This document shows positions 851 through 45,870 of a DNA stretch of 64,000 bases, piece after piece. The stretch lies in the IMG/VR virus record IMGVR_UViG_3300028584_001241. One strand, 5' to 3'. Every line of letters starts with the position of its first letter. The stretch's first letter is position 1. This DNA is from a virus. Made by a program: the position numbers and the translations under genes. The notes below the pieces were generated by a model. The model was not told the DNA's origin. It was given only the letters and a program-made list of their open reading frames with translations, and made no database searches.

Positions 851-1627
851 ATGACTGAATTGACTCCCAAACCATTATTGAAAAAGATGACCGTTGGTCA
901 ACTTTCCGCTGATGTCACTCGAGAAATTCTTGAAGATGTCATGCATTCTGATTTTGTGGGTGTCGTTAAAAATTTTGTACCGGCATTTAAAAATAAAAAT
1001 TCAAAAACAGGTAGAGTTGTTTACAAATTCGACTTCTTAAATTATTTTACAATGGTATCCACAGATAAAGGTGAACAAAATACAGTCGTCAATATCAACG
1101 GCGATGTCAGAAAGGTAAAAGAAGTATTTACTAACACTGGATTTACTATTGATCACAATGATCAAGGATCATTAGATTACATCAAGAAGTTTATTAAAGA
1201 AGTTGGAGACATCTTACCAGAAACGATTAAAGATTATGACCATACAGAAGGTGATTTTGAAGTAACACAACAAGCAGGAAAGTTTAATTTTGAAGTCAAA
1301 GTGAAAACAGTCCTCTTTGTGAAATCTAGAACGTCTGTATCGGAAAGGATTAACTGCTCATTGTCTATTACATCAAAAGCGACTGGGTTGGTAGAACGGG
1401 TTAAGTTTAGAATTCAAGAAAGTAAGTTTATCTTTGGAACATCAGTGTATGATTTTGAAAATGTAAGACCTGATTTCTTTAAACATAAACTAAAAAAAGT
1501 ATTTTTAACATACAGTAAAAACATTATTGATGAATATGGGTTGATTGATACGACTAAACGCCCAAGTGAAGTGAATGATGAAGAATATGAACGCATGAAA
1601 ACAATTGTCAAAATGATTACCATCTAG
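851..1627 (+). CDS. Hypothetical protein with C-terminal MxxI tag
   Basis: 258 aa, AAGGA RBS; ends ...KTIVKMITI followed by TAG. Confidence 0.8.
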   Translation: MTELTPKPLLKKMTVGQLSADVTREILEDVMHSDFVGVVKNFVPAFKNKNSKTGRVVYKFDFLNYFTMVSTDKGEQNTVVNINGDVRKVKEVFTNTGFTIDHNDQGSLDYIKKFIKEVGDILPETIKDYDHTEGDFEVTQQAGKFNFEVKVKTVLFVKSRTSVSERINCSLSITSKATGLVERVKFRIQESKFIFGTSVYDFENVRPDFFKHKLKKVFLTYSKNIIDEYGLIDTTKRPSEVNDEEYERMKTIVKMITI

Positions 1628-1640
1628 GAGGAAACACATC

Positions 1641-1730
1641 ATGAAAGTCAGTCAACGTAAAAAGAACGCATTCAAAAAAACACTTAAAAAATATCTGCAA
1701 AAGATTAAGCAGATGAAAAAACTAGGCTGA
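1641..1730 (+). CDS. Small basic peptide (29 aa, MKVSQRKKNAFKKTLKKYLQKIKQMKKLG)
   Basis: AGGAGG RBS overlapping the previous stop; not in ORF track. Confidence 0.55.
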   Translation: MKVSQRKKNAFKKTLKKYLQKIKQMKKLG

Positions 1731-1776
1731 TAATATTTTATGCATAAATATTGTCGCCATTATTGGAGATTTATAT

Positions 1777-2385
1777 ATGCAACAGTATCCATCAATAGGT
1801 AAAGGCATTATTCAAGACGTTGACTACTACATTTTTGACAAATTAGACGGTTCAAACGTTCGAGTTGAATATTCGCTTAAAAAAGGCTTCGATAAATTTG
1901 GAACAAGAAAGAAATTAATGTCAGATGATTCAGGCATTCTTAATCAGTCAAAAGAGTTGATTATGGGTTATGAAAAAGCTGTTCATGATATCTTTAAAAA
2001 GAATAAATGGGAAAATGGAACGTTGTTTTTTGAGTTTCACGGCCCTAATTCTTTTGCTGGTTTCCATGATGAGAATGATACATTCAAAGTATCTCTTATT
2101 GACGCTCACATTGGTAAAATAGGTTACTTACCACCAAAAGAATACATCAAGACGTTTGATGGTTCAGTAGAAATGTCTGAATTTCTTCTTATTTCTAAGT
2201 TCAACAGAACAATGTTAGAGAAGATTAAAACGGGCACTCTCGATGGTGTGACATTTGAAGGTGTCATTGGTAAGGCCGTTGTAAGAAACAAGATAGTAAG
2301 GTGTAAAGTCAAAAATCAAGCTTGGATTGATAAGTTAAAAGCCAAGTGCGGTGATGATGAAACCCTATTCAATACCTTGGAATAA
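1777..2385 (+). CDS. Rnl2-like RNA ligase / covalent nucleotidyltransferase domain
   Basis: Motif I KLDGSN, motif III EFHG, motif IV EGVIGK, motif V KVKN. Confidence 0.75.
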   Translation: MQQYPSIGKGIIQDVDYYIFDKLDGSNVRVEYSLKKGFDKFGTRKKLMSDDSGILNQSKELIMGYEKAVHDIFKKNKWENGTLFFEFHGPNSFAGFHDENDTFKVSLIDAHIGKIGYLPPKEYIKTFDGSVEMSEFLLISKFNRTMLEKIKTGTLDGVTFEGVIGKAVVRNKIVRCKVKNQAWIDKLKAKCGDDETLFNTLE

Positions 2386-2386
2386 C

Positions 2387-2408
2387 AAAAAAGCCCTTCG
2401 GGGCTTTT
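2387..2408. terminator. Bidirectional intrinsic terminator
   Basis: aaaaaagccc-ttcg-gggcttttt between convergent genes. Confidence 0.85.
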
Positions 2409-3102: not shown

Positions 3103-4380
3103 TTACATTTTTACTTTTTGAGTTCTCTTTACATCAAAGCGTTTAGATAAGTTATTCATGAAGTCTTTTTCTTCATCTTCAATATCAAAGAAATCATTAG
3201 AAGAACGAGCGTTCATTTTCTTTTCATGGATTTGCTTATCAAACACTTTTACATCAGTAATAACGTCACTTAACATTGCTTTCCCATTTTCCCATTGACC
3301 ATTAAACATCTTAGGCAGTAAAGGGATGATAGGTTCTATCCAACCAGCGTTAATGAAAACAGACTGATGTTTTTTATCCAGTTTCTCTATAACCTTATCG
3401 ACTTGTCTTTTTAAGTGATTTTTACCTAATTCAGTAAAGTCAGACATGATAATGATAAAATCTTTTTTAATCGCTTCATTAATGATATTTTCAAATAGTG
3501 CTCCACCTAAACCATGTCCACGGTAATTATTGCTGACCATGATACTGGATACTTTCAAAAACTTAGCAGCCATGTCTTTGGATGATTGTCCTAAATGAGC
3601 AATAGCCTTATCAACCACGACGCTGGTGTCAAGAACAGCAATGCCGCCTATTTCTAAATTGTTATGAGCAATCACCGCAAAACCATTTGTATTTTTAGGT
3701 TTAGATTCTTTTACAAAATATCTGAGGTCATAGTTTTTGTTAAGTGAGCTATACACATCATTGGTTGATTGTATCTTCACCGTATTGGCTAAGTAATTAT
3801 CTAATTCATCAAATGAAACAATATCAAAAGTAAGGTCGTGTTTTGACTTAACGATAATGCTTTGTTTAAGATCATTTTCTTCAAAGAGAACATTGTATAA
3901 TTCTGGATTAATTTCTTTCAATCTATTAATCACTGGAAGTATTTCTAAATTGCTGGTAACAAATATTTCATCCATCCCATTTTCTTCTGGTTGATCTATA
4001 CCTAAATCCACAACAGATGTAAAACCAGAAATAGGTAATTCACTGTTCAAAGGCATACGGCGTCTTGACTCTCCAAGAATTTTTTTAGTGTAGTCTGCAA
4101 TAAGAACATTTTCACCATCAACATTGATTGTGGCTTTTTCTAAATTCTTACTTGGAATTACTTTAAGGTAGTAATTATCTTCGTGATCGGTACCGATCTT
4201 TGAATATTGATAAAGTCCTTCAAAGTAATAAGAGTTGATAATACTATAAAGCGACGAAGCAATAATTTCAGAATCTTTTTTGGTTGCTTCTCTGCCATAT
4301 TCAATGTTGAATGCTTTCTTTATATCGCTGATATATCCAGTTAAGATAACTTCTTCATTATTATTGTTTGTCTTTTCCAT
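3103..4380 (-). CDS. GNAT acetyltransferase domain protein
   Basis: Motif A VSNNYRGHGLGGALF, later FTELGK; basic C-terminal tail. Confidence 0.7.
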   Translation of the reverse strand: MEKTNNNNEEVILTGYISDIKKAFNIEYGREATKKDSEIIASSLYSIINSYYFEGLYQYSKIGTDHEDNYYLKVIPSKNLEKATINVDGENVLIADYTKKILGESRRRMPLNSELPISGFTSVVDLGIDQPEENGMDEIFVTSNLEILPVINRLKEINPELYNVLFEENDLKQSIIVKSKHDLTFDIVSFDELDNYLANTVKIQSTNDVYSSLNKNYDLRYFVKESKPKNTNGFAVIAHNNLEIGGIAVLDTSVVVDKAIAHLGQSSKDMAAKFLKVSSIMVSNNYRGHGLGGALFENIINEAIKKDFIIIMSDFTELGKNHLKRQVDKVIEKLDKKHQSVFINAGWIEPIIPLLPKMFNGQWENGKAMLSDVITDVKVFDKQIHEKKMNARSSNDFFDIEDEEKDFMNNLSKRFDVKRTQKVKM

Positions 4381-6343: not shown

Positions 6344-7009
6344 ATGAACGCCACTGATGTGAATATTGATAAGGCTGATCATCATTTTAAATTAGCAATG
6401 AACGCATTAGTCGTAATGTGTGTTGTTTTGCCATTTCTACAAATCTTCTTTGGTGAATTTAAATGGTCAAACTTTTTTTCATCATTAAGCATTGCTTCAT
6501 CCATGACGATTGCTACGGTGTTCTTCAAAAGAACAATGATTAATGAAGGTTACAAGGTTAAAATGAACAGCTTCATTTACTTGGTCGCTTTAATCCCTAT
6601 TGTAACTGTTGGAACCATTGTATCAAGTTACTATTATACCCCTATAAAAATGATGTTAGATGTGTTCCCTGTGTATATGATGATGCCGTTGATTGTCTAC
6701 ATGGCCTGTATATTTAAATGTATTTATAAAACACTAGAATCACTTTGCTCCAAGGGTTCTATTATTCAAGCATTAGACTTAGAAAAAAAAGATTACACCG
6801 TTGTAATGAATTTTAGTGACAATGTTTTTTATGAAGTCTTTGGTAACATGAAAGTGTTCATTGGTATGGATACGGTCGCTGATTCAACAGTTTCCGTATC
6901 AAATATCAGTAATGCTACAAAAACTACCAAAGTGTCAGAGCTGACAGAAACACCGAGAAGTGAACTGACCGTTGATCACTTTACTATCGCTGATATGGAA
7001 AATATCTAA
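6344..7009 (+). CDS. Membrane protein with C-terminal MxxI tag
   Basis: About 4 TM helices; ends HFTIADMENI. Confidence 0.75.
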   Translation: MNATDVNIDKADHHFKLAMNALVVMCVVLPFLQIFFGEFKWSNFFSSLSIASSMTIATVFFKRTMINEGYKVKMNSFIYLVALIPIVTVGTIVSSYYYTPIKMMLDVFPVYMMMPLIVYMACIFKCIYKTLESLCSKGSIIQALDLEKKDYTVVMNFSDNVFYEVFGNMKVFIGMDTVADSTVSVSNISNATKTTKVSELTETPRSELTVDHFTIADMENI

Positions 7010-7023: not shown

Positions 7024-7551
7024 TTGAAAGAAGAAATTTGCCTACATTACAATAGGCACAAAAAAGAATGGTATCACAAAAAAGAAAAACTTTCTGATAT
7101 ACAATCTTACGAAGATAATCTATTCGCATCTATTAATGAAATAGTGACAATGATTGACTATATCAATAGTTTTTCATATACGCATATTGATAATTTGATC
7201 AATGCATTACCTATGACATTGATAAAAGAAGATAAGGTAAACTACCTTCATATTGATTTCTCTGATCCCATTATACAAATTAACAAGTATGACGTAGAAT
7301 TAGTGGTTCATCATCAATTATTTAATAAGCTTCCACCACTTCCTCATCAAATTCCTATTGATGAGAGATCAAAAAAATCAATGGATAAATTGTTTATAAT
7401 GAAAGTAGAAAAAGATGGTTTTATAAAAAAAGACGCTGTTATTTATAATTATTTATTCACATTTATTAAAATTATGTCAGGTATTGAATACAGCAGTGAT
7501 ATTGGAACAATTGCTGACTATATAAAACTTGCTGACATGAATAGAATCTAA
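7024..7551 (+). CDS. Hypothetical protein with C-terminal MxxI tag
   Basis: AGGAG RBS and TTG start; ends YIKLADMNRI. Confidence 0.75.
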   Translation: MKEEICLHYNRHKKEWYHKKEKLSDIQSYEDNLFASINEIVTMIDYINSFSYTHIDNLINALPMTLIKEDKVNYLHIDFSDPIIQINKYDVELVVHHQLFNKLPPLPHQIPIDERSKKSMDKLFIMKVEKDGFIKKDAVIYNYLFTFIKIMSGIEYSSDIGTIADYIKLADMNRI

Positions 7552-7560: not shown

Positions 7561-8217
7561 ATGTTAAGTAAAAATGAGATGAAAGAGTTTGCTGAACAAT
7601 TTTTTATAGGGAAAATTAAACTAAAGAAAAACCCAACAATTTATGGAAAGGCCGATAGCTATTATTTTGCAAAAGATGGGTTATTTATGTCTTTTGAAAA
7701 TGATTCAATCTTGTTAAGCATCCCTGATGTTGGTTTTTTTACTGATAATACAGAAGAAATCACGCCTAAAATAAAAAATTGTGTCAATGCAATCAATACC
7801 ATTATAAAAATAGAAAACAATGTCAGAGGCAATGATTTAGCCAGAAAATTAGATGGTGATATCTACACAGAGATGTGTTTTAAAGTAAAGAATAAAAAAA
7901 TTGTTTTAGATTTGTTTACATTAAAAAGTTATTTCGCAATCAAAGAAGAAAAAACTAATTTTGGTCTTATATTTTTTGATGTGCCGTATTATTGTAATCA
8001 GAGCACTACTTTTAGTGTAAAAATAGATAATTTTGAAATTATATATCATCGTCGTCCAAGCAATGATTTTAGTGTAAAACCAACTCAGAATAAAAAGATA
8101 GGTGGTGATTTTGATATGTTTAACTCAAGTATTGTAAATGAAATTCTTGATTTCAATTATTTTCTAGATGATGTGTTTAACGATCAATTGAACACATTAG
8201 AAATGGCTCTATTATAG
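7561..8217 (+). CDS. Hypothetical protein with C-terminal MxxL tag
   Basis: AAGGAG RBS; ends QLNTLEMALL. Confidence 0.75.
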   Translation: MLSKNEMKEFAEQFFIGKIKLKKNPTIYGKADSYYFAKDGLFMSFENDSILLSIPDVGFFTDNTEEITPKIKNCVNAINTIIKIENNVRGNDLARKLDGDIYTEMCFKVKNKKIVLDLFTLKSYFAIKEEKTNFGLIFFDVPYYCNQSTTFSVKIDNFEIIYHRRPSNDFSVKPTQNKKIGGDFDMFNSSIVNEILDFNYFLDDVFNDQLNTLEMALL

Positions 8218-14216: not shown

Positions 14217-15041
14217 CTAGTTTTCTATACGTTTAAATTCATTGACTATTTCGTGATATTCCTCGATGGAAATGTCTAAACGTTTAAGCCAATTATTGAA
14301 ATATTCATCCAGCCTTTCTTTCTTCGGATGTGTCTTTGAATGATAAATAATAAAATCAGCATAGTTCTGGATTTTATCAGCTATCAACATATCATTAACT
14401 TCTTTCAATGGACTGAGTTCTATTTCACTGATGTTACTGATCGTTCTGTTCGACAAATAAGCATTAGCTATGTTTCGATATTCCATTGTAAGACCAATCA
14501 CTTCTGCAGAAAAAGTGTCTTTGACGTATTCCCAGTTTTTAGCTAAATCATTAGCACTTTGTATCAATGGGTGTAGACAAAATGCCTTCATTGCACTTTC
14601 AGTCGCTCCAATACGGTGAAGAATATAAATACCTTCATCAATATGGTTCATGAGGTAACACTGACTACGTTCTGCTTTCTGATCACCATAGAAATCTTGG
14701 ACAGCTTTGTATTCAAGCGTCTCCGTAAATAAGGCACCTAAAACATACGCTTTCTTTTTAGCAATCAAAAATTCTTCAATATGGCAATCAGGAGACGTAA
14801 CGATACGTTCGTTGATCGAACCAATAACACTGCTAGAAAAACCTTTCCCTCGGGATGAAGCATAGCAATAATAAGATTTAAAGGCTTCATTATCTTTTAT
14901 AAAAGTTGTGATCAATCCACCGGGAGCTTCCGTAATATCCTTCTGCCATACAAAACCATACGGTAATAGTTGTCGGGCACGAGTTTGAAAATAGTTGATA
15001 ACTTCTTCTTTTGTATCCGCATCATATTCTAAACGTTTCAT
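14217..15041 (-). CDS. Hypothetical protein: GNAT-like fragment plus degenerate RelA/SpoT-type HD domain
   Basis: SSRGKG; YGDQKAERS..YLMNH, FCLHP, LIADKIQN. Confidence 0.55.
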   Translation of the reverse strand: MKRLEYDADTKEEVINYFQTRARQLLPYGFVWQKDITEAPGGLITTFIKDNEAFKSYYCYASSRGKGFSSSVIGSINERIVTSPDCHIEEFLIAKKKAYVLGALFTETLEYKAVQDFYGDQKAERSQCYLMNHIDEGIYILHRIGATESAMKAFCLHPLIQSANDLAKNWEYVKDTFSAEVIGLTMEYRNIANAYLSNRTISNISEIELSPLKEVNDMLIADKIQNYADFIIYHSKTHPKKERLDEYFNNWLKRLDISIEEYHEIVNEFKRIEN

Positions 15042-16643: not shown

Positions 16644-17399
16644 ATGAATATTATTAACTTTTTTAAATACAAATATAATATATCGTTATTATTCATAATG
16701 ACTATCATTACCAATACCATCATTAATAGTCAATTCATCAACACAAGTCTAAGTGACTTTATCGTTTACAACAGTATTATTGTTGGGATTTTTTTAATAT
16801 CAATCATTTATAAAAAAGATCGAAAGAAGACATTAATACAACATAACACTTATGAAAAAGTAGGGAAATTAATAATGCTGGTTTTGGGGATTTGTTTAAC
16901 ATCAACAATGACTTCAATATTAATGGCTTTCAACTTTTTTCAAGCAAATGAACTTATGATGACGTATCATCAAACTATCATCATTACTCCAATGATTGCT
17001 TTAACAATAATGGGATTAGCACACGTTAAAAATCTTCTTTATCTCTTTATTTGCATGATTAACCCTGCAATAACATTAGTCATGATGAAAGATACTGATA
17101 ATATAAACAAAAAGTTAGAAAAAGAACTAAAAAAAATAAGACGTTTTTTTAAAGACAAATCAATATACTTTCAACATACACCCCCTAATTATTTAGTAGA
17201 CATATTGAATTGTGTATCATTTAAAGCGGTTTCAAAGAAAAATAAAGCAACCTATAAATTTGATTACAATACATTTTACTATAATGATAACGAATTTAAC
17301 AAACTGGAACTGTACAATTACTTAAAAACAGAAAAGTTAAAAATAGATACAATGTCGGAAGAAGATTGGAAAATTGCTGAGATGTATTTAATTCATTGA
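16644..17399 (+). CDS. Membrane protein with C-terminal tag domain
   Basis: TM helices; ends EEDWKIAEMYLIH; TTGACA-N17-TAAAAT promoter upstream. Confidence 0.75.
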   Translation: MNIINFFKYKYNISLLFIMTIITNTIINSQFINTSLSDFIVYNSIIVGIFLISIIYKKDRKKTLIQHNTYEKVGKLIMLVLGICLTSTMTSILMAFNFFQANELMMTYHQTIIITPMIALTIMGLAHVKNLLYLFICMINPAITLVMMKDTDNINKKLEKELKKIRRFFKDKSIYFQHTPPNYLVDILNCVSFKAVSKKNKATYKFDYNTFYYNDNEFNKLELYNYLKTEKLKIDTMSEEDWKIAEMYLIH

Positions 17400-17413
17400 A
17401 TTGGAGTTATAAA

Positions 17414-18082
17414 ATGAAAAAGTATTCACTGTTTAAATTTTTTGTAAAAAACACACTGGCATTAACATTACTGATACTAATCCCCGATGTGTTATTCACA
17501 CTCTATCTAATAACCCAGCAAGTAGCTGAGTATAATGCAGATGGATTAAGTGCATTAAGTTTAATCATGTTATTGATTAAGTGTGTTGCCTTGGAATTTG
17601 CTATACGTTCTCTTAGAAAAGATTATAAGGAGAAAATGATTTTCACTATTTTTAAACCTTATATTAATTTAATCTTCATACCTGTTTGTTTATCGTATTA
17701 TTATATAATTTTATCAGGTCTTTTTGTGGATAAGTTTTATGAAAGCCTAATCGGCATTATCTCTGTTCTCATACTGGGGCTTCAAGTGATTGTCATTGTT
17801 AAAAGATTGGGGACATACAATATCTATAAGGATAGATTTCAAAATTTGAAGAACGTAAAACAACTGATACATTTTGATGGTTATGTTGAAATCAGCATTG
17901 ATATGAAATTAGAATCACTAAACTTCCGATTAGGTGATTTTAAGGTTGATGAGGAACAACTTTACTACAAAACACATATCTTTAATTATGACAGGTTTAC
18001 AAATTACATAAAAGACTTCAATATCAATATAACAAAGATGACAGATGATGATTTTATGATTGCTAAAATGTATTGTATTTAA
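17414..18082 (+). CDS. Membrane protein with C-terminal MxxI tag (paralog of 16644)
   Basis: 4 TM; ends DDDFMIAKMYCI; GGAG RBS before ATG 17414. Confidence 0.75.
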   Translation: MKKYSLFKFFVKNTLALTLLILIPDVLFTLYLITQQVAEYNADGLSALSLIMLLIKCVALEFAIRSLRKDYKEKMIFTIFKPYINLIFIPVCLSYYYIILSGLFVDKFYESLIGIISVLILGLQVIVIVKRLGTYNIYKDRFQNLKNVKQLIHFDGYVEISIDMKLESLNFRLGDFKVDEEQLYYKTHIFNYDRFTNYIKDFNINITKMTDDDFMIAKMYCI

Positions 18083-20269: not shown

Positions 20270-20980
20270 TCAGATGGCAATCATTTTAATAAGTTCAAGC
20301 TGTTCATCATTCATATCAAATAACTTTAAATGATACTCGTTCTGCATGTCCATAACAATACTTGAAGAAATACTAATGCCATCCACAACAAACTGAGAAT
20401 TCTCATAATTAAACTGAATTTTTTTACCACCTGAAAAAATACTGATAGACCCTAAATCAAAATTACAGTTATCAACAATGTAATAGGACGAATTTGTAAT
20501 TTTTTTAATAATATCATTAACAGCATTCCAATTGAATTTAATGATGTTTGGACTGGAGAACATAACACTACCGTTAACTTGACTCATAATATTTTTTAAC
20601 ATTTTCATGGGATATGTAAAAGTCATCTCAAAACTTTTTATAAAAAAAGGAACAACAAACAAAATAAATGCAAGATACGTACTGCATTGAACAAATAATT
20701 GTATAGAATCTGTAGTATTAAAAACCCATGAGAACAGTAGCAATAGAATAGGAAAAAATTTATAAACAATGTCTTTTTTTGTAAAGTATGCTCGAATTAA
20801 TACATACTGATAAAGACTAACACTCCATTGGATAATAGGATAGAGCGTTGAAATGATGAGTAGTATAGCGAAGAAATAAAAGCTATAATTAGAAGGTTCA
20901 TAAGTAAAGATTAAGAATGCGACACTAAATATCAAATAGTAAAAAGCATTCAAAATAGAGATAGTAACATTCTTAATCAT
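20270..20980 (-). CDS. Membrane protein with C-terminal MxxI tag
   Basis: 4 TM; ends EQLELIKMIAI. Confidence 0.75.
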   Translation of the reverse strand: MIKNVTISILNAFYYLIFSVAFLIFTYEPSNYSFYFFAILLIISTLYPIIQWSVSLYQYVLIRAYFTKKDIVYKFFPILLLLFSWVFNTTDSIQLFVQCSTYLAFILFVVPFFIKSFEMTFTYPMKMLKNIMSQVNGSVMFSSPNIIKFNWNAVNDIIKKITNSSYYIVDNCNFDLGSISIFSGGKKIQFNYENSQFVVDGISISSSIVMDMQNEYHLKLFDMNDEQLELIKMIAI

Positions 20981-22653: not shown

Positions 22654-23598
22654 TTAAATGATTGCCATTTTGATCAAATTAAAGTTTTCAATAACGTTAT
22701 TCTTTGAGTCAGCTTCAAAGGTGTCGTCTAATTTATAAAAAACAGCAGATTTATGATTAATTAGAACACCAATTTCAATCATCCACTTTTCAAATATAAG
22801 CTCCAATTTATCAATTTTTTTAATTACTTGGTTTTGTTTGATCCCAAATAGTTGATAATTGTCATCCCTGCTATTCGTTTGGAAGTTTACTTTAGGATAA
22901 TAACCTACCTCTTCTATCACAAAAAAATTAGAAAATGAAGGCTTGCCAAACATAGCAGGGATAGTAAAATGGTTCATTTCTATAGGTTTCTGTTGATAAA
23001 AACTTTGATAAGCTACAAATTGAGATTCACCAAAACGAATTTCATTTGTTGAATAATCATAATAAACAATTAATTTTCCAAAATCACTGAATTCAAAATT
23101 AATTTTCATTCTGGGTTTTAATTGACTGCTTTCATTAACATAATACTGAAATCCCATTGAAATTTTGAAACCAATAGGAGCTATCTTTTTAAATTCCTGT
23201 TTAAGTTTTTGTGATTGAATAACGGATTCTTCTTGTTCAAACATGTATTCCATTAATTTAAAAGGTTCTTTAAATGAGATTATTTCTTTAAAAATAGTAT
23301 TACTATAAAATAAATCTAATACTTGTTGATAATAGTCCAAATTTTTAAGTGGTTCTAATGTTGGAAAAATTTTATTGTATATATCTTTATAAAGTGGAGA
23401 ATTAACAAATCCTGTTAAAATAGCTCCATCTTCTTTGACATACTTAAATTGAGCAATAGGCTGGTTATTAAAGTCTTTAATAACAAGAAAATCTGCTGAA
23501 CCAGACGTATAAGATCGAACCCGACTGAACACATCGAATGGTTTTGGGTAGCTTGTTCTAAGAACTTTTTTAATTTCTTTTAATGAACTTCTGAACAA
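22654..23598 (-). CDS. Tandem paralog family A, copy 3, C-terminal KMAII
   Basis: Aligns with 23661 and 24640; TTG start after GAGG gives MFRSSLKEIKK like its paralogs. Confidence 0.75.
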   Translation of the reverse strand: MFRSSLKEIKKVLRTSYPKPFDVFSRVRSYTSGSADFLVIKDFNNQPIAQFKYVKEDGAILTGFVNSPLYKDIYNKIFPTLEPLKNLDYYQQVLDLFYSNTIFKEIISFKEPFKLMEYMFEQEESVIQSQKLKQEFKKIAPIGFKISMGFQYYVNESSQLKPRMKINFEFSDFGKLIVYYDYSTNEIRFGESQFVAYQSFYQQKPIEMNHFTIPAMFGKPSFSNFFVIEEVGYYPKVNFQTNSRDDNYQLFGIKQNQVIKKIDKLELIFEKWMIEIGVLINHKSAVFYKLDDTFEADSKNNVIENFNLIKMAII

Positions 23599-23660
23599 AA
23601 TTAAATCCTCGAAAAAATAATAATTAATGATAAATAATATTAAATAAGCAAACAATAAAA

Positions 23661-24584
23661 CTAAATGAGTGCCATCTTAACAAGATTAAAATTTTCAATC
23701 ACTTTATCTTTGGCTTCGGCTTCAAAAGTATCATCTAGCTTATGAATAATAGCTAATTTTTTATTGATTAGGATACCAATTTCAGACATCCAACTATTAA
23801 AAACTGCTTCTAGTTTTTGGAAATTCTCTATTGGGTCTTGTTTGTTAATATTCATCAATTGATAAGTAGACTCATTATCAAATTTGTAAAAAATAATTTT
23901 AACCGGCTTCAATTCAATACCTAATAATCTTAATTGTATTTGAGTTAAACGGAAAGGCCCATAATTATTGAAAGCAGGTTCCTGAAAATCTTTAAAAGTA
24001 TCACTGTCTACAAACTGAACTTCACCAAAATGAATAATATTGGTGTCATAATCATAATAAAGAATCAAACTGCCCAAATCTTCAAATTCAAAATTAATTT
24101 TCATTCTTGGTTTTAAAGAAAAATTTTCGTTAACATAATACTGAAAACCAATAGAAATATGTAATCCATTAGGAGCGAGTTTTTTAAAATCGTTATTAAG
24201 ATCTAATTTTTGAATGCAGTCTTCTTTCAATTTAAACATATCTTCGGTTAATTTTAAAGATTCTTGTTCATAAGAAAATAATTCTTTAAAAATAGAATTA
24301 TTGTGAAAAATATCAATTATATCTTGATAGTAGGCCATATGTTCATTTGTATGAAGATCTGGAAAATTTTTTTCATAATATGGCCGGTATTTTGGAGAAT
24401 TTTCATAACCTATTAATATAGCCCCATCTTTTGGAACATATTTAAATTCAGCAACCGGCTGCTTATTAAAGTCTTTAATCATGATCATAGTAGTTTCATT
24501 TTTAAAGGATGTGGAGACATCAAAAGGTTTTGGATACTTTCTTCTAAGGTTTTTTTTGATTTCTTGTAATGTATTTCTAATCAC
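23661..24584 (-). CDS. Tandem paralog family A, copy 2, C-terminal KMALI
   Basis: GTG start; DGAIL.G..NSP, IGFQYY, PRMKI.F.F motifs. Confidence 0.8.
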   Translation of the reverse strand: MIRNTLQEIKKNLRRKYPKPFDVSTSFKNETTMIMIKDFNKQPVAEFKYVPKDGAILIGYENSPKYRPYYEKNFPDLHTNEHMAYYQDIIDIFHNNSIFKELFSYEQESLKLTEDMFKLKEDCIQKLDLNNDFKKLAPNGLHISIGFQYYVNENFSLKPRMKINFEFEDLGSLILYYDYDTNIIHFGEVQFVDSDTFKDFQEPAFNNYGPFRLTQIQLRLLGIELKPVKIIFYKFDNESTYQLMNINKQDPIENFQKLEAVFNSWMSEIGILINKKLAIIHKLDDTFEAEAKDKVIENFNLVKMALI

Positions 24585-24639: not shown

Positions 24640-25470
24640 TTAAATAAGTGCCATTTTAATCAGCTTTAAATGTTCAAGCACTTTATTTTTATCAATAGGT
24701 TCAATCAACTCATTCATTTCATAAGCAATAAAAAACTCTTTGTTTAAACGCCCACCCATTTCTAACATCCAATAAGTAAATACGGAATTTAAATGTTCAT
24801 CATCACAGAATGAATCATCTGCCTTAATATTAAATAATTCAGTATTTGTTTTATCATCAAGAATAACAACCGTATTGTCTTCAATCAGAGTGACATCACC
24901 AAAATGAAAGCATTGATTAGAATAATCATAATAGATAATAAGGCTGCCACACGTTCTAAATGAAAACTCAATTTTCATTCTAGGGGTTATTTCACTTTTT
25001 GCATTAAGATAATACTGCAATCCAATAGCAGTGTCACTGCGTCCACTATTACCTAAGAAAGAAAACAGATCAATTAAAGGAACACCACGTCGATGGTCGT
25101 CACTAATATCAAACATATTTTTATTCACAACGCCTAATGAATGATTTTGAACATACTCTTTAACAACCGCATTATTATAAAATAAGTCAAAGACTTTCTG
25201 ATAAGTTGTTAAATGCTGGGCGTCATAATATTCTGGAAAGTGTTGTTCACGTTCTTTTTTATATAATGGTGAGTCATTGTAACCTGAAATGATGGCACCA
25301 TCTTCTTTGAGATATTGAAAACGAGCAAGTGTTCGATTATTAATATCCTCAATAACAACAAAATTTGCCATTTCCCCTTCAAGTTCTTCATTATAGCTCG
25401 ATACCTTAAATGGACTTTTATAAATATTTTTAATAGCTTTTTTAATGTCTTTCAATGAGCTTCTAATCAC
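24640..25470 (-). CDS. Tandem paralog family A, copy 1, C-terminal KMALI
   Basis: GTG start; same motifs as the other two copies. Confidence 0.8.
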   Translation of the reverse strand: MIRSSLKDIKKAIKNIYKSPFKVSSYNEELEGEMANFVVIEDINNRTLARFQYLKEDGAIISGYNDSPLYKKEREQHFPEYYDAQHLTTYQKVFDLFYNNAVVKEYVQNHSLGVVNKNMFDISDDHRRGVPLIDLFSFLGNSGRSDTAIGLQYYLNAKSEITPRMKIEFSFRTCGSLIIYYDYSNQCFHFGDVTLIEDNTVVILDDKTNTELFNIKADDSFCDDEHLNSVFTYWMLEMGGRLNKEFFIAYEMNELIEPIDKNKVLEHLKLIKMALI

Positions 25471-27653: not shown

Positions 27654-27676
27654 AGACACCTCTACGTTAACAAATC

Positions 27677-29514: not shown

Positions 29515-30177
29515 ATGACGGCAAATGATTTCCCACCAATAGTTACCCATATGAGCACACAAGTTGGTAAAAAAAGTGAACTGAACATCATAATACCAAG
29601 AACTAGTAAACTCTATTATGATTTTACCAAAGAAGAAGATCCTTTTTTGAAAGATGATCGTCGGTTTCAAAATAAGACAACATCTTGGGTTAACCATGCA
29701 TTATTGGATAAAAACATCACCAGTATAGAAAAAAACCAAGACTCCATTACCTTAAAATTAAACACAGAAAACATTCCCTATCAGGTCATCAGAGTAGTAG
29801 AAGACTATAATAAGGATAATCAATTTATTTTTGACTACTCTATTGGTCATGGTTATGTAGTAAATATAGAAATATTTCTTAATAATGAAGGTTTTGCTGA
29901 TGAAATGGTTGTATTTGAAGAGGTTAAATATATCACTAAAAAATATGTAACTGCGTTGTTAAGCCTTGGTTATAAAACAGGTATATTCGATGGTGATAAG
30001 TTTAAAAACGATAAAAATGTTATTATAAATAAAATTACGATGAAAAATACAAGTTATACATATAGTTTAACGATTTATGAAAAAGATGTGTATAAAAATT
30101 ATAAAAAAATAAAAGAAGAAATAGAAGAAAGCGATATTGATAGTAAATATAAAATACTAAATACAATTTTAAAATAA
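29515..30177 (+). CDS. Hypothetical protein (paralog of 30191..30964)
   Basis: Shared C-terminal LTI....Y.NY.KI......D..YK.LN.ILK. Confidence 0.75.
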   Translation: MTANDFPPIVTHMSTQVGKKSELNIIIPRTSKLYYDFTKEEDPFLKDDRRFQNKTTSWVNHALLDKNITSIEKNQDSITLKLNTENIPYQVIRVVEDYNKDNQFIFDYSIGHGYVVNIEIFLNNEGFADEMVVFEEVKYITKKYVTALLSLGYKTGIFDGDKFKNDKNVIINKITMKNTSYTYSLTIYEKDVYKNYKKIKEEIEESDIDSKYKILNTILK

Positions 30178-30190
30178 ATGGAGATGTAGA

Positions 30191-30964
30191 ATGATAACAA
30201 AAAACCTAAAATATTTTGTCTTGTCGTTATTAATGTTGTCACCTTCATTAATATACGCCACTGAACAAGAAATTAATACCCCGCCGAATGTTGAAAGCTT
30301 TCCGATGACTTTTACTCAAATGGCAAAAATAGTCGGTCCAAGAGACACCGTAGACATCTTTATTCCAAAAGATTCATACCTAATGGACACTTTATTTGCT
30401 AATGAAACTAATACTAAACGTGTCTATGGAATTGACTTTGGTAAACTTAGAAGAGGTGTTGTCTCCTATGCCGACGATAAACTATCTCAACGTATTATTA
30501 ATACTGTGCCAAAAGACAATGGCACTTTAATCACACTTAATCTGAAAGCCCTGAAACCTCAAACACTAAGAGTCATAGATGACAAATCAGATAACATGTT
30601 TTTTAATGAATATGAATTAGGTGACAGCATTGTATTAAAAGCCAATTTAGTTTTATCACAAGGAGCATTAGGGACGGATTACGATACCTTAAATAGACAA
30701 TATAAATATTTAGCTGAACGCTATAAAATGTTTTTTAATGATAAACACTATTTTAGCTTCCTTTTTGCTGACGGACGTGCTGACTATCCTGCAAAAATAT
30801 ATACAAACACCACCATAGACAACGAAAGAAATGCTCCCGCATCCAGAATAACGTTGACAATCATGAATATGAAGACTTATGAGAATTATGATAAGATCAT
30901 GGATAAAATGGCTGACAGAGCTTTTGATGAAAACTATAAACAATTAAATGACATCTTAAAATAA
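30191..30964 (+). CDS. Secreted protein (paralog of 29515)
   Basis: Signal peptide and shared motifs. Confidence 0.75.
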   Translation: MITKNLKYFVLSLLMLSPSLIYATEQEINTPPNVESFPMTFTQMAKIVGPRDTVDIFIPKDSYLMDTLFANETNTKRVYGIDFGKLRRGVVSYADDKLSQRIINTVPKDNGTLITLNLKALKPQTLRVIDDKSDNMFFNEYELGDSIVLKANLVLSQGALGTDYDTLNRQYKYLAERYKMFFNDKHYFSFLFADGRADYPAKIYTNTTIDNERNAPASRITLTIMNMKTYENYDKIMDKMADRAFDENYKQLNDILK

Positions 30965-34252: not shown

Positions 34253-34975
34253 ATGGATAGATTTAGTGTTAGAGAGGATAAATTTCCATACAGTAGCAGC
34301 GTAGGTGGCTTATACCTTAACCATGCGATTGATGATAAACAATCTGTTCAAATTGCAAGAAAGCTCTCTGAAAAATGGTTGCCTGATGGGAATTGTCTGC
34401 TTGAATTAGAAATGGATATACCCCAAGCCAAACAAATTAGAGAATTAGGTAAAAAATATGTTTCATTGGTTCAAGGTAAATATGAGAAGAATAAAAAGAT
34501 TAGAAAAGTTTATTTGAATAAACTCATTGAACTGGGTTGTATTGATATGAGTGAGATATCCAAAATGTATCACGCTGACAGTATTACAGAAGACGAATAT
34601 TTAGAAAAAACAGTAATGAGAGTGCCCTTTGACTTCAACGGCATTAAAAAGATATATACAAACCTGACACTGAATAAAATGTTTTATCATATTCAACTAG
34701 ATAGGATTATAGAGTTTGTGTGTGTTGAATTATTTGTTTATAACGCTAAAATGACATTTCTCAGTAGTGACTTTGAAGGCTTAGAGTTTTGCAAGCTGTT
34801 AAAAAGTGTAGAAGTTGCGTCACCAAAAGAAACTCAAGATGAGATGTTGCATGCATGCATTAACGAACGATTACATAAGAGAATTACTAAAAAAATTGGT
34901 ATGGATGTTGATATGAATGATTTTCAAAAGAACTTCGACAGCTATAAAGCCATTTATGACATGTGGAAGGTATAA
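34253..34975 (+). CDS. Tandem paralog family B, copy 1, C-terminal DMWKV
   Basis: LPDG.CLLEL, VPFD.NG, FQ.NFD.YK..YDMW. Confidence 0.8.
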   Translation: MDRFSVREDKFPYSSSVGGLYLNHAIDDKQSVQIARKLSEKWLPDGNCLLELEMDIPQAKQIRELGKKYVSLVQGKYEKNKKIRKVYLNKLIELGCIDMSEISKMYHADSITEDEYLEKTVMRVPFDFNGIKKIYTNLTLNKMFYHIQLDRIIEFVCVELFVYNAKMTFLSSDFEGLEFCKLLKSVEVASPKETQDEMLHACINERLHKRITKKIGMDVDMNDFQKNFDSYKAIYDMWKV

Positions 34976-34977
34976 TT

Positions 34978-35709
34978 ATGACTAAGTTTATAGTAAAAGA
35001 ATACAGTTCACCTTATCTATCAACATCTGTTAAAAATTTGATGCTAACGATAAACAACAACAATTCAGACAGAATTGCTTATGTTCATACAAAAAAATAT
35101 TTACCTGATGGAAGTTGTCTATTAGAACTCGATAGTGAAGATTTCAAAAGAGAGAGTGCAGAAAAATGGGCACCCAATAATTTTTTACAAATTAAAGACT
35201 ATGCTAAAAAATGCAGAGAGATCCGTGAAATCTATGTCAATAAATTGGTAGAATTAGGTTGTTTTAATCTTGAAGATGTTAGAATGCTTAATACATCAAA
35301 ATTTAGGTTAAAAGAAACAGAAGATACCGCTTACTTAACACGAGTACAAATACAGGTTCCTTTTGACATTAATGGTAAAAGAACAATCTATAAGAATTTA
35401 ACAGAATCGCGTTTCTATTATCATCTTGAGACAGACAGATTGATAGAGTTTATGTACAGTGAACTGTATGTTTACAATTCAAAGATGTTTTTTTTAACAA
35501 GTGATATAGAAGGATTAGAATTGTTAAACCCATTAAAACAAATTGAAGTGGCTTCAACAGAAGAAAATAGGCATAAATTTATAGAAAACTGTATTTATAC
35601 AAGGTTGTACAAAAAAATGACTAAAAAAATAGGTATAGAGGTGAGTCTGGAAGACTTTCAGAATAACTTCGACAGATACAAAATGGTATACGACATGTGG
35701 AGAGTTTAA
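34978..35709 (+). CDS. Tandem paralog family B, copy 2, C-terminal DMWRV
   Basis: Aligns along its length with 34253. Confidence 0.8.
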   Translation: MTKFIVKEYSSPYLSTSVKNLMLTINNNNSDRIAYVHTKKYLPDGSCLLELDSEDFKRESAEKWAPNNFLQIKDYAKKCREIREIYVNKLVELGCFNLEDVRMLNTSKFRLKETEDTAYLTRVQIQVPFDINGKRTIYKNLTESRFYYHLETDRLIEFMYSELYVYNSKMFFLTSDIEGLELLNPLKQIEVASTEENRHKFIENCIYTRLYKKMTKKIGIEVSLEDFQNNFDRYKMVYDMWRV

Positions 35710-35712
35710 ATT

Positions 35713-36744
35713 ATGTATTTTATTGAATTTGAAAAATTAAGCAAGCTAACACCCAGCGATTGGAAAAACTCACCTGTTGGGGTTAATGCATTAAGTATAT
35801 TTAAAAGCTTGTATGAAACAAGTAAAAATCGTGACTTTCTTATTCCAAAAGCCTCTCTTCAAATAACAGAAGATTTCTTATTTGTGACATCAGCTAATAA
35901 GAATATGGTTACATTTAATCCTACCGCTGAAGACGAAAAGAAAGAATATATGAGTCATTCTTTCATTGTTAATAAAAACCACAGTAAATTTCCAACGTCT
36001 AGAATTTATGGATTAAAAGAACAACTAGAATCAAGTCCTAATATTTTGTTAGCTAAGGACGTATTCAAGTCTACTTACCGTTCTGATTTAATTCCTGAAT
36101 ACAATTATAATATAACCCTCGATTATATGACCAAGTATAAACACAATAAAGCTAACGAACATAGAAAAATATTTGATGAACAAATAAAACCGATTGCGGA
36201 TCACTGTATTAAAGAAATCATTGATGTCTTTTCTCAATATGGTGAGGTGGAATTATCACCACCCAGAAAACAAAACAGTCGAACATTAAACTATTTTATT
36301 AAAAATTCTATAAATTTCATTGTTGAAATCGCACAGAAAGAAGAATTCAAAATTGGTTCCAATGGAGAGTTGATACCTAATTTAAAACTTGAAGTTCGTT
36401 TACAACAGTCTGACGTTTATGAAAAGAAGGTAAAAGAGAAAGATGGTACCATTGTTGTTAAAAAATTTAACGAGCGGTATATAAAACAATCAGGTTATAA
36501 ACATTTCACAATTGAAATCAGAAACTTTGAATTTTTAAAGAAGCCTGCTTACTATGCTATATCAATGACACCACATGGCTATCTTCGTTTGAAAAAATCT
36601 TACTCAAAAGAATTCTTCAAAAAGATTATTTTCCATTACCAGTTCAAAAAGTATTTCGAAAAATACGAAATTGAGCTGGAATTAGACGAATTAGAAGACA
36701 ATCCACAAGCGTTTTTTGATTTAGTAGCAATGTTGAATTTTTAA
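35713..36744 (+). CDS. Hypothetical protein with C-terminal MxxF tag
   Basis: 343 aa; ends AFFDLVAMLNF. Confidence 0.75.
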   Translation: MYFIEFEKLSKLTPSDWKNSPVGVNALSIFKSLYETSKNRDFLIPKASLQITEDFLFVTSANKNMVTFNPTAEDEKKEYMSHSFIVNKNHSKFPTSRIYGLKEQLESSPNILLAKDVFKSTYRSDLIPEYNYNITLDYMTKYKHNKANEHRKIFDEQIKPIADHCIKEIIDVFSQYGEVELSPPRKQNSRTLNYFIKNSINFIVEIAQKEEFKIGSNGELIPNLKLEVRLQQSDVYEKKVKEKDGTIVVKKFNERYIKQSGYKHFTIEIRNFEFLKKPAYYAISMTPHGYLRLKKSYSKEFFKKIIFHYQFKKYFEKYEIELELDELEDNPQAFFDLVAMLNF

Positions 36745-36941
36745 CTTGATTTTTTGTTTAAATTGCTTTAAGATAGAAGAATATTCACACATTAATGGAG
36801 AAATCTCATGTAACTAATTATATCACGCTAATAAATGACGAATGCATAACTAAACATATAGCATAACTATAAATCCATTTTGATGGAAGTTATCTTATGT
36901 CCTTAAAAGTCGTTTATTGCTTAATAATTAGGAGATTTCAC

Positions 36942-37700
36942 ATGGTCACATATAGTAATGCAGTAAGACACCTCAGTAATTCCAAATGCAAAGAATTTAA
37001 CAAAAAATTTACAAATAAGATAGCCCTTGAAATATGGGGTGACGATTCATGTTGTGATTCATTTTGTTGTTGTTATGATGATGACGACTATTTAAGTGAT
37101 GAGCAATATGAATGGTCGTATGAATATATGGAAAAAAGAAGTCATTTGTTTTACGAGAACATTTCAAGTTTGAAAACTGTATTCACAACAGATTTCTTGG
37201 ATGACGTAAAAGCAAGACAATCTGCAGAAATAGACGCATTAACAGTTTATCTTAAAGTTAAAGCAAAAGATTTGATAGAAGGTTATAATTCAGAATTTTT
37301 TGCAGAGTTTTTTGATGAAGGTAATAAATATAATTTAGAATTATATGCAATGGTCAATTATAAAGATTTCGATTTAACAAAAATTAGAAGTATAGATATA
37401 GCGGTTATGAATCCTTTCAATCGTGAGGAAGGTGATTCATATGGTATGGGGCGTAATTCAATGTACAAATTTAATGTATATTATGAGAAACATACGAACA
37501 TCATGTTCTCTACGATTTCATTTTTTTATAGAAATATGCAAAGAAGAGAAATTCCAGAGTGGTGTGAGACAATGGAAGAAACGATTATGTATATGTATCT
37601 AGATGCACCGCAATATAAAAAGTTAAAAGAAATTTTTGATATAAAAGAAGTTATAAAAGATATAAGCATGTTTGATGTGTTAAAAATGTATATGGTTTAA
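36942..37700 (+). CDS. Hypothetical protein with C-terminal MxxV tag
   Basis: AGGAG RBS before MVTYS; Cys/Asp patch; ends MFDVLKMYMV. Confidence 0.75.
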   Translation: MVTYSNAVRHLSNSKCKEFNKKFTNKIALEIWGDDSCCDSFCCCYDDDDYLSDEQYEWSYEYMEKRSHLFYENISSLKTVFTTDFLDDVKARQSAEIDALTVYLKVKAKDLIEGYNSEFFAEFFDEGNKYNLELYAMVNYKDFDLTKIRSIDIAVMNPFNREEGDSYGMGRNSMYKFNVYYEKHTNIMFSTISFFYRNMQRREIPEWCETMEETIMYMYLDAPQYKKLKEIFDIKEVIKDISMFDVLKMYMV

Positions 37701-43269: not shown

Positions 43270-43297
43270 TCAAAAACTAACCATTAGGAGAATGACC

Positions 43298-43897
43298 ATG
43301 ACTATGTAGATTGATAAAATTGAAAACCTTAGCTTCAACGATCTTGTTAAAGAGATGAAAGCTTGTGAACAAACACAAGGCATGAATGTTCTTCAACATG
43401 GATTGTCAGTCAATAAATACTTTCAGGATTTGAAAGATCACATTATTGATGGAAAACCATTAGCTCTCGAATGGAGACTTCCTGATTGGATTTACAATAA
43501 ATCTATCTGGAGTAACTTGGCAGATGACAAAGACATCAAAACCTATCAGATTTATCACGACTGTGGTAAGCCATTCTGTTTGACAATTGATGAAAATGGT
43601 AACCGTCACTTCCCTGACCATGCACAAGCATCTGGTCTAATCTGGCGTAAAATCGGTGGCACTGAACTTCAAGCTCAATTGATGGAGCATGATATGGATA
43701 TTCATTTGCTTAAAATGGATGACTTTGAAGATTTCTATGCACTTCCGTTCGCTGCAACCCTATTGATTACTGGTTTCTGTGAGATTCACAGCAATGCTGC
43801 TATGTTTGGTGGTATTGAATCAACAAGTTTTAAAATCAAGTGGAAAAAGATTAACAAAATCGGCAAAAAATTTAATGATAAACTATTAGGAGAATAA
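43298..43897 (+). CDS. HD-domain phosphohydrolase (CCA-adding-enzyme-type HD) with in-frame TAG at 43307-43309
   Basis: VLQHG, YHDCGKP, RHFPDHAQAS, HDM; AGGAG RBS precedes ATG ACT ATG TAG. Confidence 0.75.
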
Positions 43898-43899
43898 TC

Positions 43900-44328
43900 A
43901 TGAACGCTATTGAAAAAAATGAAACTATCGAAACAACTGAAATGAATAAAAGAGACTTAATTAAAAAAGCGGTTGTCACATTCCGTGAAGGCTATAAAGA
44001 GAATAAACATGTTTGCACCTTAGAAGTCTTTATGTTGTATGCAATCATCAAAGGAAAACATGTGGATGTAACCATTAAGGATAATCACTACAAAGAAGGC
44101 TGCAATCCATTTGATCACCACCCAGTATTCAAATATAACATTGAAAAGGTATCAAATATCAATGCGGGTATTTTGCTGGAGTATGGACAAGGTGCAATCA
44201 GAATTATTTCGAAGAGTAATTATATGGTTAACTCAGTCAATGAAAAAGTTAAATACTTCTTCGGGCTAACACCAGTGGAATTTGAGTTCTTGCTCAATCA
44301 ATATGTAGAAGAAAGAAAAGCCTCTTAA
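43900..44328 (+). CDS. Hypothetical protein
   Basis: AGGAG RBS; last gene of operon. Confidence 0.75.
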   Translation: MNAIEKNETIETTEMNKRDLIKKAVVTFREGYKENKHVCTLEVFMLYAIIKGKHVDVTIKDNHYKEGCNPFDHHPVFKYNIEKVSNINAGILLEYGQGAIRIISKSNYMVNSVNEKVKYFFGLTPVEFEFLLNQYVEERKAS

Positions 44329-45059
44329 TGAGGCTTTCTTTTTGATACGTGAGGTAACTCATAATCTATGACAGAAACAATAGTATTTGGTAAGAACTCA
44401 AACGCATTTTCATCGTGTGCATAATGAAGATTAATAAAGTTAGCTTGTATGTATTCTTTGAATTCAGCAACATCATTGAAAACAATTCCATTTACTGGTT
44501 TCTTCTCCATAATGATTTGATTAACCGTTTTTTCATAATCGTGAGGATAAGATGCTGTTGGCTTATCAATCGGTATTAAGTCGCCCACTCTAAAACTGGT
44601 AAAGTTTGGATAACCATATTCAAATGGAATACCATAGGGTGCGGCTTGCCTCATCTCTTCCAAGGAGTATGACTTAGTATTACTGTTAATAAAGAAAAGA
44701 GAATGCCCAGATTGACCTTGCCATTCGCCATTTTTAGGAATGTTATGTGTGTCTAATTCAACAATATTTTGACTGATGTAGTCAACAATAAAGCGTACAT
44801 TTTTCCCCTTTTTGTCGTTCTTAGTAGCACTCATGGAAAACTTGTTAATGACATATCCTCTGACTTCTGAATTTCGATTAACATAGTCCACTAATCTTAT
44901 TAAGGTATCGGGTTTTTCGTAATCAAATTTTTTCATGAGATACACTATCTCTTCATCAAGCTCGGCCTGAGAGGTTATTCGTTGGTGTCTATTTTCTGTT
45001 TGTGCAAATGAAGTTGTAGTAATTAAAAATAAGCTAGTAAGTAATATGCGTTTTAACAT
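44325..45059 (-). CDS. Secreted protein
   Basis: Signal peptide ending SFA|Q. Confidence 0.7.
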   Translation of the reverse strand: MLKRILLTSLFLITTTSFAQTENRHQRITSQAELDEEIVYLMKKFDYEKPDTLIRLVDYVNRNSEVRGYVINKFSMSATKNDKKGKNVRFIVDYISQNIVELDTHNIPKNGEWQGQSGHSLFFINSNTKSYSLEEMRQAAPYGIPFEYGYPNFTSFRVGDLIPIDKPTASYPHDYEKTVNQIIMEKKPVNGIVFNDVAEFKEYIQANFINLHYAHDENAFEFLPNTIVSVIDYELPHVSKRKPH

Positions 45060-45207
45060 TATTTTCTATGTGTGTTTATATAAAATATTACACTATAATA
45101 CTAAAAAGTCAAAATTAGATTTAATTATTTATTGTTATTTTTTTATAAAGTGTTAAGCTTGAAAATGAAAGGATCTCTAAATGATAATTTAAAAAAGGTG
45201 GTTAATT

Positions 45208-45870
45208 ATGATTTTTAAAACTCTTGCTGAAAATGAAGAACATTCCAATCTACTTGAAATAGCTCAGCATATTACAATAGATCAAACAAATATATTCCCA
45301 GAGAAGTTTTTGTTCTATGTGTTTTCAAAATATGATTTACACAGTCTTTCAATGGAGTTTAGAAACAAAAAAACAATTTCAATACGTTCTCTGGTTGACC
45401 ATAAGTTAACCGAAATTGCAATACTTGAATACATGAATAATGGTGATTCAATTATTTTGACAGATGAAATATTATTTGAACCGGGCGAAATAAAAAATAT
45501 AAGTGATCCATTAATAAGAGAGAATGGTTTTGCTAACTACAACAATTATAACAATGTTAAAAAATTCTTAACAGTTCCTTTCTTTGGTGATTTAGACTAT
45601 CGAGTGAGTGCTCAAGCTGCTTACCCTTATGGTGGAGACGCATCCTTACGTTTTGTTAGACATCATAAAATAAATAATTGGTCATCCACAATAAGTATAC
45701 TATTAGATTACATAGATAAAACACAAACAAAGTTAACAGACCAAAATCTAAACTCATTTAAAGTCATATTGTCTGATTTGTTACTTATTGATCTATCTGA
45801 TGAAAATCATGAATCGTTCATCAGAAATAGTAGTAATTATAATAAATTAATTGGAATGAAACAAATTTAA
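45208..45870 (+). CDS. Hypothetical protein with C-terminal MxxI tag
   Basis: Ends NYNKLIGMKQI. Confidence 0.7.
   Translation: MIFKTLAENEEHSNLLEIAQHITIDQTNIFPEKFLFYVFSKYDLHSLSMEFRNKKTISIRSLVDHKLTEIAILEYMNNGDSIILTDEILFEPGEIKNISDPLIRENGFANYNNYNNVKKFLTVPFFGDLDYRVSAQAAYPYGGDASLRFVRHHKINNWSSTISILLDYIDKTQTKLTDQNLNSFKVILSDLLLIDLSDENHESFIRNSSNYNKLIGMKQI

Follow-up and report, generated by a model that had tools for sequence, protein, structure and literature searches.

The locus described here raises the question why so many orphan proteins of one replicon should end in the same way. It is a stretch of 64,000 nucleotides from the IMG/VR virus record IMGVR_UViG_3300028584_001241, and this whole stretch is called the window in the following. 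An initial annotation had claimed that about 15 mostly unrelated proteins of the window share a C-terminal tag of hydrophobic residues around a methionine at position -4 (the last residue being -1). All 15 C-termini quoted there were recovered on translation of the respective open reading frames (ORFs), 14 of them with Met at -4 and one, ORF 16644-17399, with Met at -5 and one extra last residue. The coordinates given for tails on the plus strand had to be corrected, as they are actually gene starts. About one in six genes of the window codes for an orphan protein ending in a common 14-residue helix.

The set analysed in the window comprises 81 non-overlapping ORFs after removal of three spurious ones over a tRNA array. 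M-x-x-[ILVF]-stop is found in 14 of them versus 0.6 expected from the same pattern at 18,862 internal positions, and the longer form Φ-Φ-x-M-x-x-[ILVF]-stop (Φ, hydrophobic residue) in 13 versus 0.12 expected from internal positions. The binomial probability of this enrichment is about 1e-15, and it survives the collapsing of paralogs with P about 2e-10. Methionine occurs 15 times at -4 of the C-termini of the window and zero to three times at each other position from -1 to -15. In the only related record found in IMG/VR, IMGVR_UViG_3300031088_000737 (G001 in the following), 38 of 203 ORFs are carriers (~19% of local genes). A control set drawn from 80 unrelated proteobacterial loci (563 ORFs) contains no full motif and a single M-x-x-[ILVF] end. 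The same picture emerged from a position-specific scoring matrix (PSSM) of the last 13 residues, applied in leave-one-family-out mode to window and G001 with 69,130 internal positions as background: 53 of 284 C-termini exceed the 99.9th percentile of internal positions, and the top two internal matches are the -5 variants. At C-termini the tail is about 100 times as frequent as at internal positions of the same proteins.

The consensus was derived from 53 carriers of window and G001, which form 27 BLAST families (the 15 carriers of the window alone form 11 BLAST groups), with equal weight per family. The hydrophobic, methionine and terminal positions of the initial annotation were found again, and the motif turned out to be longer than described, with about 14 residues in exact register with the C-terminus and an acidic cap. 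Position -13 is T/S or aromatic, positions -12 and -11 are D/E, position -9 is L/F (hydrophobic in 22.5 of 27 families), position -7 is L/V/I (25.5/27) and position -6 is I/L/A/V. Then follow E/K/N/D at -5 (D/E in 12.5/27), Met at -4 in all 27 families (the residue by which the set was defined), a mostly hydrophobic residue at -3 (17.7/27) and a free position -2. The last residue is I (in 19 families), F, V or L in all 27 families and never Ala. Information content is limited to the last ~15 residues and is at noise level upstream of about -16. In the tail helix most faces are hydrophobic, and a narrow stripe at -8, -5 and -2 is polar. Acidic residues are enriched at -11, -12, -15 and -16, which gives two to four of them in the helix cap and no long Glu run, and the net charge of the segment from -20 to -9 is -1.6 in carriers versus 0.0 in non-carriers. 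A further motif upstream, K-K-Φ-x-Φ around -30, is no general feature of carriers, as it was found in 5 of 27 families versus 10 of 198 non-carriers.

No part of the carrier proteins is as constrained as the tail. Over all ortholog and paralog pairs the bodies are 37% identical, and identity rises to 46% in the 26 residues before the tail and to 59.5% in the 14 residues of the tail itself. Carriers are named here by their first coordinate (Table 1). Between carrier 851 and its G001 ortholog body identity is 73% and tail identity 100%; the corresponding values are 42% and 93% for carrier 7561 and 36% and 79% for the variant 16644, whose ortholog has kept the extra last residue. Four family alignments show Met -4 and the last residue (nearly) invariant and positions -2 and -3 varying freely, as they do between families. 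Thus L208, F213, M218 and I221 are invariant in 12 aligned homologs of the 6344 family with free variation at -2 and -3, and K303, M304 and I307 in 14 sequences of the 23661 family. A profile of one family (family 0) found only 36 matches among 1.84 billion representative proteins, 31 of them full-length, and Met -4 is kept in 30 of these 31, even near bit score 40, and replaced by Ile in one. At the conserved hydrophobic positions seven to eight different codons are used, all three stop codons occur, and the DNA downstream of carrier genes is unrelated between carriers. This shows selection on the peptide and not on a DNA element.

No Pfam family was detected on any of 31 carriers scanned, and no Pfam-bearing protein of the window carries the tail, in agreement with the earlier statement that none of the recognisable enzymes is tagged. 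Carriers have no N-termini of the Sec type, and their tails carry net negative charge. The tail is found on soluble alpha+beta proteins as well as on membrane proteins, its presence on soluble and membrane proteins alike having been claimed before; 9 of the 53 carriers have three to four transmembrane (TM) segments followed by a C-terminal domain of 93-160 residues. Where a topology was derived, i.e. for two TM families, the tail is predicted to be cytoplasmic. In carrier 17396 the loop charges point to an N-in, C-in arrangement with both termini in the cytoplasm. In carrier 6344 a hydropathy scan gives three TM segments and a weaker fourth one was read by eye; if the latter is counted, the tail of this family would face the cytoplasm, too.

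Carriers are arranged in tandem paralog arrays of only 20-30% identity. Carriers 20270 and 22654 together with one neighbour (20270-21597, 22654-23655) are present in the window and absent from G001, which means that the carrier content differs between genomes that are about 80% identical. A different kind of change is seen in the untagged protein 14217, whose ortholog of 492 residues in the relative has the tag (LINMLTI) at the end of a 218-residue C-terminal extension; about 740 bp of the relative's DNA are without counterpart in the window. The Met-less terminal helix of the paralog pair 29515..30964 could be a decayed tag or else a sister motif. Four other proteins of the window that are large or bear a domain (10064-11974, 18327-19757, 3103-4380 and 55815-56477, among them ART-PolyVal and a HipA-like kinase) have Lys/Arg-rich C-terminal tails.

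That the carriers are mostly unrelated, as the initial annotation had put it, holds by sequence and needs qualifying by structure. Bodies were compared after removal of the last 16 residues. With hidden Markov models of the 27 families (hmmsearch) no cross-family match was better than E = 0.012, the 351 HHalign pairs of carrier bodies reached a probability of 3.1% at most, and deeper profiles likewise link no two carrier families. HHalign repeatedly selects collinear regions of a beta-hairpin and a long helix, without significance. AlphaFold models cover two of the 27 families, 23661 and 34253. The model of 23661 (mean predicted local distance difference test, pLDDT, 76) has a confident body and a tail helix (residues 289-306) below 50, and in the model of 34253 (mean pLDDT 87) the tail helix (228-239) is at 83-92. 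Of the top 50 matches in the PDB 24 are common to both models, including frataxin/CyaY, the FP domain of PI31/Fbxo7, Med17C and bilin reductases, and their order of secondary-structure elements is collinear (z = 2.6, reached by 1 of 150 shuffles); with Foldseek nothing was found in the PDB for model 1. Judged from these models the two families probably have a common alpha+beta fold and they may be very distant homologs. This goes part of the way towards the single homologous family that the initial annotation had named as the case against its tag, for the two modelled families and not by sequence. A single family cannot explain everything since the TM families and the 492-residue fusion differ in architecture.

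What, then, is the tail for? We tentatively suggest that it serves docking or sorting in the cytoplasm, where one partner would read it for export or assembly. Its exact register, the invariant Met, the free positions -2 and -3, the acidic cap, the variable linker in some families and the low model confidence in one are what is expected of a peptide read by something constant. In particular, the low pLDDT of the tail helix on the confident body of 23661 and the variable linker of 6344 support a recognition tail, and so does the position of the tag on a separable C-terminal extension in the 492-residue ortholog. One common cytoplasmic partner would read the tail together with the terminal carboxylate and would recruit the fast-evolving, tandemly duplicated orphans as effector-like cargo to an export, translocation or assembly machine. 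In such an arrangement each variable body would have its specific function, and the address common to all would lie in the constant tail. In a more far-reaching form the tail would be a new, sharply defined signal for export or sorting, carried by a large effector-like repertoire of about a fifth of local genes in a replicon without close relatives among sequenced species, and a receptor would read it via Met -4 and the free carboxylate; this form appears rather doubtful at present.

The part of the initial annotation that concerned a terminal docking or sorting signal is consistent with conservation beyond that of the bodies, with the exact register, with the presence of the tail on soluble and membrane proteins and with selection at the protein level; the reader, export machine or packaging machine which it proposed was not found in the DNA scanned. 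The scans for machinery covered the window and bases 1-120,600 of G001, which are part of a replicon of roughly 1.9 Mb, one of the lists holding 25 of 35 families. Type IV and type I secretion systems, PDZ, TPR, microcompartment-shell and encapsulin families are not among the Pfam and PHROG matches listed for this region. Also weighing against a docking tail are the high confidence of the tail helix in the 34253 model, as expected of a packed structural helix, and the fold apparently common to both modelled families, since some of what is shared could then be due to common descent. No description of the tail motif was found in the literature.

The closest published logic for the tail is that of the type IVB coupling complex, with similarity to type I signals as well. 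The coupling complex recognises terminal hydrophobic residues, acidic E-blocks (via DotM) and helical FxxxLxxxK segments (via LvgA), and its effectors comprise hundreds of orphans, about a third of them TM proteins (PMC12981334, PMC5802825, PMC7251119). The Dot/Icm signal has a hydrophobic residue within the last three to four residues (PMC12981334) and a Glu-rich E-block upstream (PMC5802825, PMC12981334). A terminal hydrophobic residue is also present in the tail (Met at -4, I/V/F/L at -1). Like the Dot/Icm signals of Legionella and Coxiella the tail is C-terminal with acidic residues upstream of a hydrophobic end; these signals are read in the cytoplasm, where the tail is predicted to be located. 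The carriers resemble Dot/Icm effectors in being fast-evolving orphans and paralog families without Sec signals and with TM proteins among them. In contrast, the tail has a near-invariant Met -4 and an exact register and is predicted to be helical, whereas the known type IVB signals are loose, mostly disordered and without an invariant residue, which is a further point against reading the tail as such a signal. Genes of the Dot/Icm system (DotL, DotM, IcmS/W) are not among the Pfam and PHROG matches listed for the scanned region.

The type I signal of the protease/HasA class, as Ghigo and Wandersman are said to have described it in 1994, consists of an acidic residue followed by hydrophobic ones at the extreme C-terminus, and it is reportedly not cleaved. 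The tail is likewise located at the very C-terminus, with an acidic or polar residue at -5 (D/E in 12.5/27 families, as mentioned) before hydrophobic ones at -4, -3 and -1 and a free end. RTX or Gly-rich repeats were not found on the 31 carriers scanned, which have no Pfam match either, and the neighbourhood lists contain no ABC or MFP match. Unlike the type I signal the tail has a longer conserved part with Met, and TM carriers are not typical type I substrates.

Several other explanations have to be weighed against a docking tail. Most or all carriers could be paralogs that belong to a single lineage-specific superfamily and have diverged explosively. The last helix, as the only part whose sequence has stayed recognisable, would then serve the structure or oligomerisation of the fold and be a family signature instead of a portable tag. 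This we consider possible but doubtful. It would account for the PDB matches and the collinear order of secondary structure shared by two families that neither BLAST nor HHalign links, for the confidently placed tail helix of 34253, for the tandem arrays of strongly diverged paralogs and the Met-less forms of a similar last helix, and it is in line with the beta-hairpin and long-helix regions that HHalign keeps choosing below significance. Yet the models represent two of 27 families only, no sequence method joins any two families, the carriers with 3-4 TM segments and the 492-residue fusion have other architectures, the signal ends at about -15 and the helix of 23661 is not confidently packed. 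Even if true, common descent would leave the frozen helix and its register with the C-terminus unexplained. All in all, the motif is probably an undescribed recognition tail, and a single, very diverged superfamily may account for some of the pattern.

The tail could also be a peptide for hetero-association or encapsulation that bundles carriers together or onto a scaffold, shell or matrix. Encapsulation peptides of microcompartments and cargo-loading peptides of encapsulins are short terminal helices or peptides behind a variable linker which bring unrelated cargo to one partner, and a short, mostly hydrophobic terminal helix with a polar stripe, found behind a linker, on many different cargo bodies and with cytoplasmic C-termini where these were derived for TM carriers, has much in common with them. 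This explanation is nevertheless improbable, as shell and encapsulin families are missing from the Pfam matches listed, carriers make up a far greater part of the local genes of G001 than known cargo sets would, and integral membrane proteins are hard to encapsulate. Quite unlikely, too, is a C-terminal degron that gives carriers a short or conditional lifetime via an AAA+ protease (e.g., with the divergent ClpA of the window) or a tail-specific protease. In degrons of the ssrA type and others of ClpXP, ClpAP and Tsp nonpolar last residues and the free carboxylate are read by one machine, and the exact C-terminal register and nonpolar ends such as MALI, MALL and MIAI would fit this. So would the presence of a ClpA homolog at 60621-62921 (+), whose first 190 residues have no Pfam Clp_N match, yet are aligned to ClpA N-domains by tblastn. 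This homolog is 39-45% identical to proteobacterial ClpA of species genomes, among the matches listed; neither ClpS nor ClpP adjoins it and nothing connects it, proposed earlier as a possible reader, to the tail or the carriers. Moreover, the tail differs from ssrA-type degrons with their LAA ends in having no Ala-Ala end, a longer helical segment of 14 residues with an acidic cap, and in being gene-encoded and strongly conserved, and a constitutive degron under strong purifying selection on about a fifth of the local genes would be hard to explain.

That the pattern arose by chance or compositional bias, or from a terminator or DNA repeat over gene 3' ends, can be regarded as effectively refuted. 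With 31% GC the genome is AT-rich. Since Met is encoded by one codon only, synonymous variation cannot exclude a nucleotide role of that ATG, but the roughly 100-fold enrichment over internal positions speaks against a compositional origin and the variety of codons and stops together with the unrelated downstream DNA rules out a DNA repeat. Among further candidates, clamp binding as in T4 and RB69 deserves mention. The RB69 polymerase reportedly ends in ...SLFDMFDF, and the clamp-binding tails of replication and late-transcription proteins of these phages presumably resemble the carrier tail in the Φ-Φ-x-M-x-x-Φ-COOH spacing on unrelated proteins that dock on one hub. The carriers differ from clamp clients in constituting about a fifth of local genes, in including membrane proteins and in having no DNA-related domain, and the last two points rule out this candidate. 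A membrane-targeting amphipathic helix is ruled out by tails that are acidic and hydrophobic on most faces, and mimicry of CaaX boxes or of PDZ class II ligands was set aside as speculation.

Carrier genes and related features are compiled in Table 1. For carrier 35713 there is no match in phage records, and a search in the ESM Atlas gave a weak lead to hypothetical proteins labelled Nucleocytoviricota; the same kind of search was without result for carrier 851.

Table 1. Carrier genes of the window and related features (aa, amino acids; TM, transmembrane segments).
Coordinates	Strand	Length and type	C-terminal tail	Remarks
851..1627	+	258 aa, soluble orphan	...NDEEYERMKTIVKMITI	no Pfam match
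6344..7009	+	221 aa	LTVDHFTIADMENI	tail after variable Ser/Thr-rich linker
7024..7551	+	175 aa	IADYIKLADMNRI	
7561..8217	+	218 aa	FNDQLNTLEMALL	
14217..15041	-	274 aa, untagged		ortholog L082:16158-17636, 492 aa, 69% identical
16644..17399	+	251 aa, multi-TM	SEEDWKIAEMYLIH	variant, Met at -5
17396..18082	+	228 aa or less, 4 TM	TDDDFMIAKMYCI	
20270..20980	-	236 aa, multi-TM	NDEQLELIKMIAI	no counterpart in syntenic G001
22654..23655	-	paralog 1 of 23661 family	ENFNLIKMAII	
23661..24584	-	307 aa		AlphaFold-modelled family
24640..25470	-	paralog 3 of 23661 family	EHLKLIKMALI	
29515..30964	+	paralog pair	…YKILNTILK, …YKQLNDILK	similar Met-less terminal helix; G001 152879-154394
34253..34975	+	240 aa		second AlphaFold-modelled family; M237 invariant in family alignment
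34963..35709	+	paralog of 34253	YKMVYDMWRV	
35713..36744	+	343 aa	NPQAFFDLVAMLNF	
36897..37700	+	267 aa or less	SMFDVLKMYMV	
45208..45870	+	220 aa	SSNYNKLIGMKQI	weakest motif match; ortholog end NKLIEMINI

The replicon that contains these genes has clear Shine-Dalgarno sites and TATAAT boxes in the window, which argue for bacterial-type expression. Recognisable genes of the window code for HipA, ART-PolyVal, two DEDDh exonucleases, SIR2, PTH2, NIF phosphatase, NUDIX, two OmpA-family proteins, a pilin-like protein, a PPAT-CoaE fusion and ClpA. In the fusion (51065-52213, +) a cytidylyltransferase-like domain of the PPAT type precedes dephospho-CoA kinase, the order being that of the eukaryotic bifunctional CoA synthase. 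The tRNA array (25566-27752, -) comprises ten genes, only for Ala (GGC, TGC x4), Arg (CCT, TCT x2) and with CAT anticodon (Met, x2). One of its Arg tRNAs matches tRNAs of Pseudomonas megaplasmids with 97-98% identity over about 60 nt and tRNAs in Acinetobacter records with 96.5%; the protein genes are without close relatives. In a plasmid collection the window has matches only at its tRNA genes, in a phage collection it has no DNA match, and among GTDB species genomes no relative of family 23661 was detected. Carrier homologs were found only in metagenomes, some of them on contigs of 1.84-1.92 Mb.

G001 has 181,270 bp and is listed as the provirus part of the 1.86-Mb contig Ga0308158_10000001. 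It shares synteny with the window, the nucleotide identity being about 80%, and window positions 1-64000 correspond to G001 181250-120508. Its Pfam and PHROG matches include aminoacyl-tRNA synthetases, RtcB, RNA ligases, GAPDH, Fpg, UvdE, MGMT, a Ser/Thr kinase and SUKH proteins. No capsid, portal, terminase or tail family is among the matches listed for G001, for which CheckV gives a completeness of 58%; the genes recognised are of an auxiliary type, and G001 may have been called viral by mistake.

Should the tail act as an address label, the complete set of clients of a machine in an uncultured lineage could be read off a pattern of 14 residues, which would at the same time provide a peptide bait for that machine. 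If the tail should even be a new export signal, cargo would become predictable from sequence alone, as the RxLR and PEXEL motifs or the C-terminal domain of the type IX secretion system have allowed. If it is instead the signature of a superfamily, this would be an unusually large and fast-evolving family, with 27 sequence-unrelated branches in 181 kb and one terminal helix frozen, and such a frozen helix would likewise suggest an interaction partner that has stayed constant. In both cases the motif is a common handle on genes that are without any annotation.

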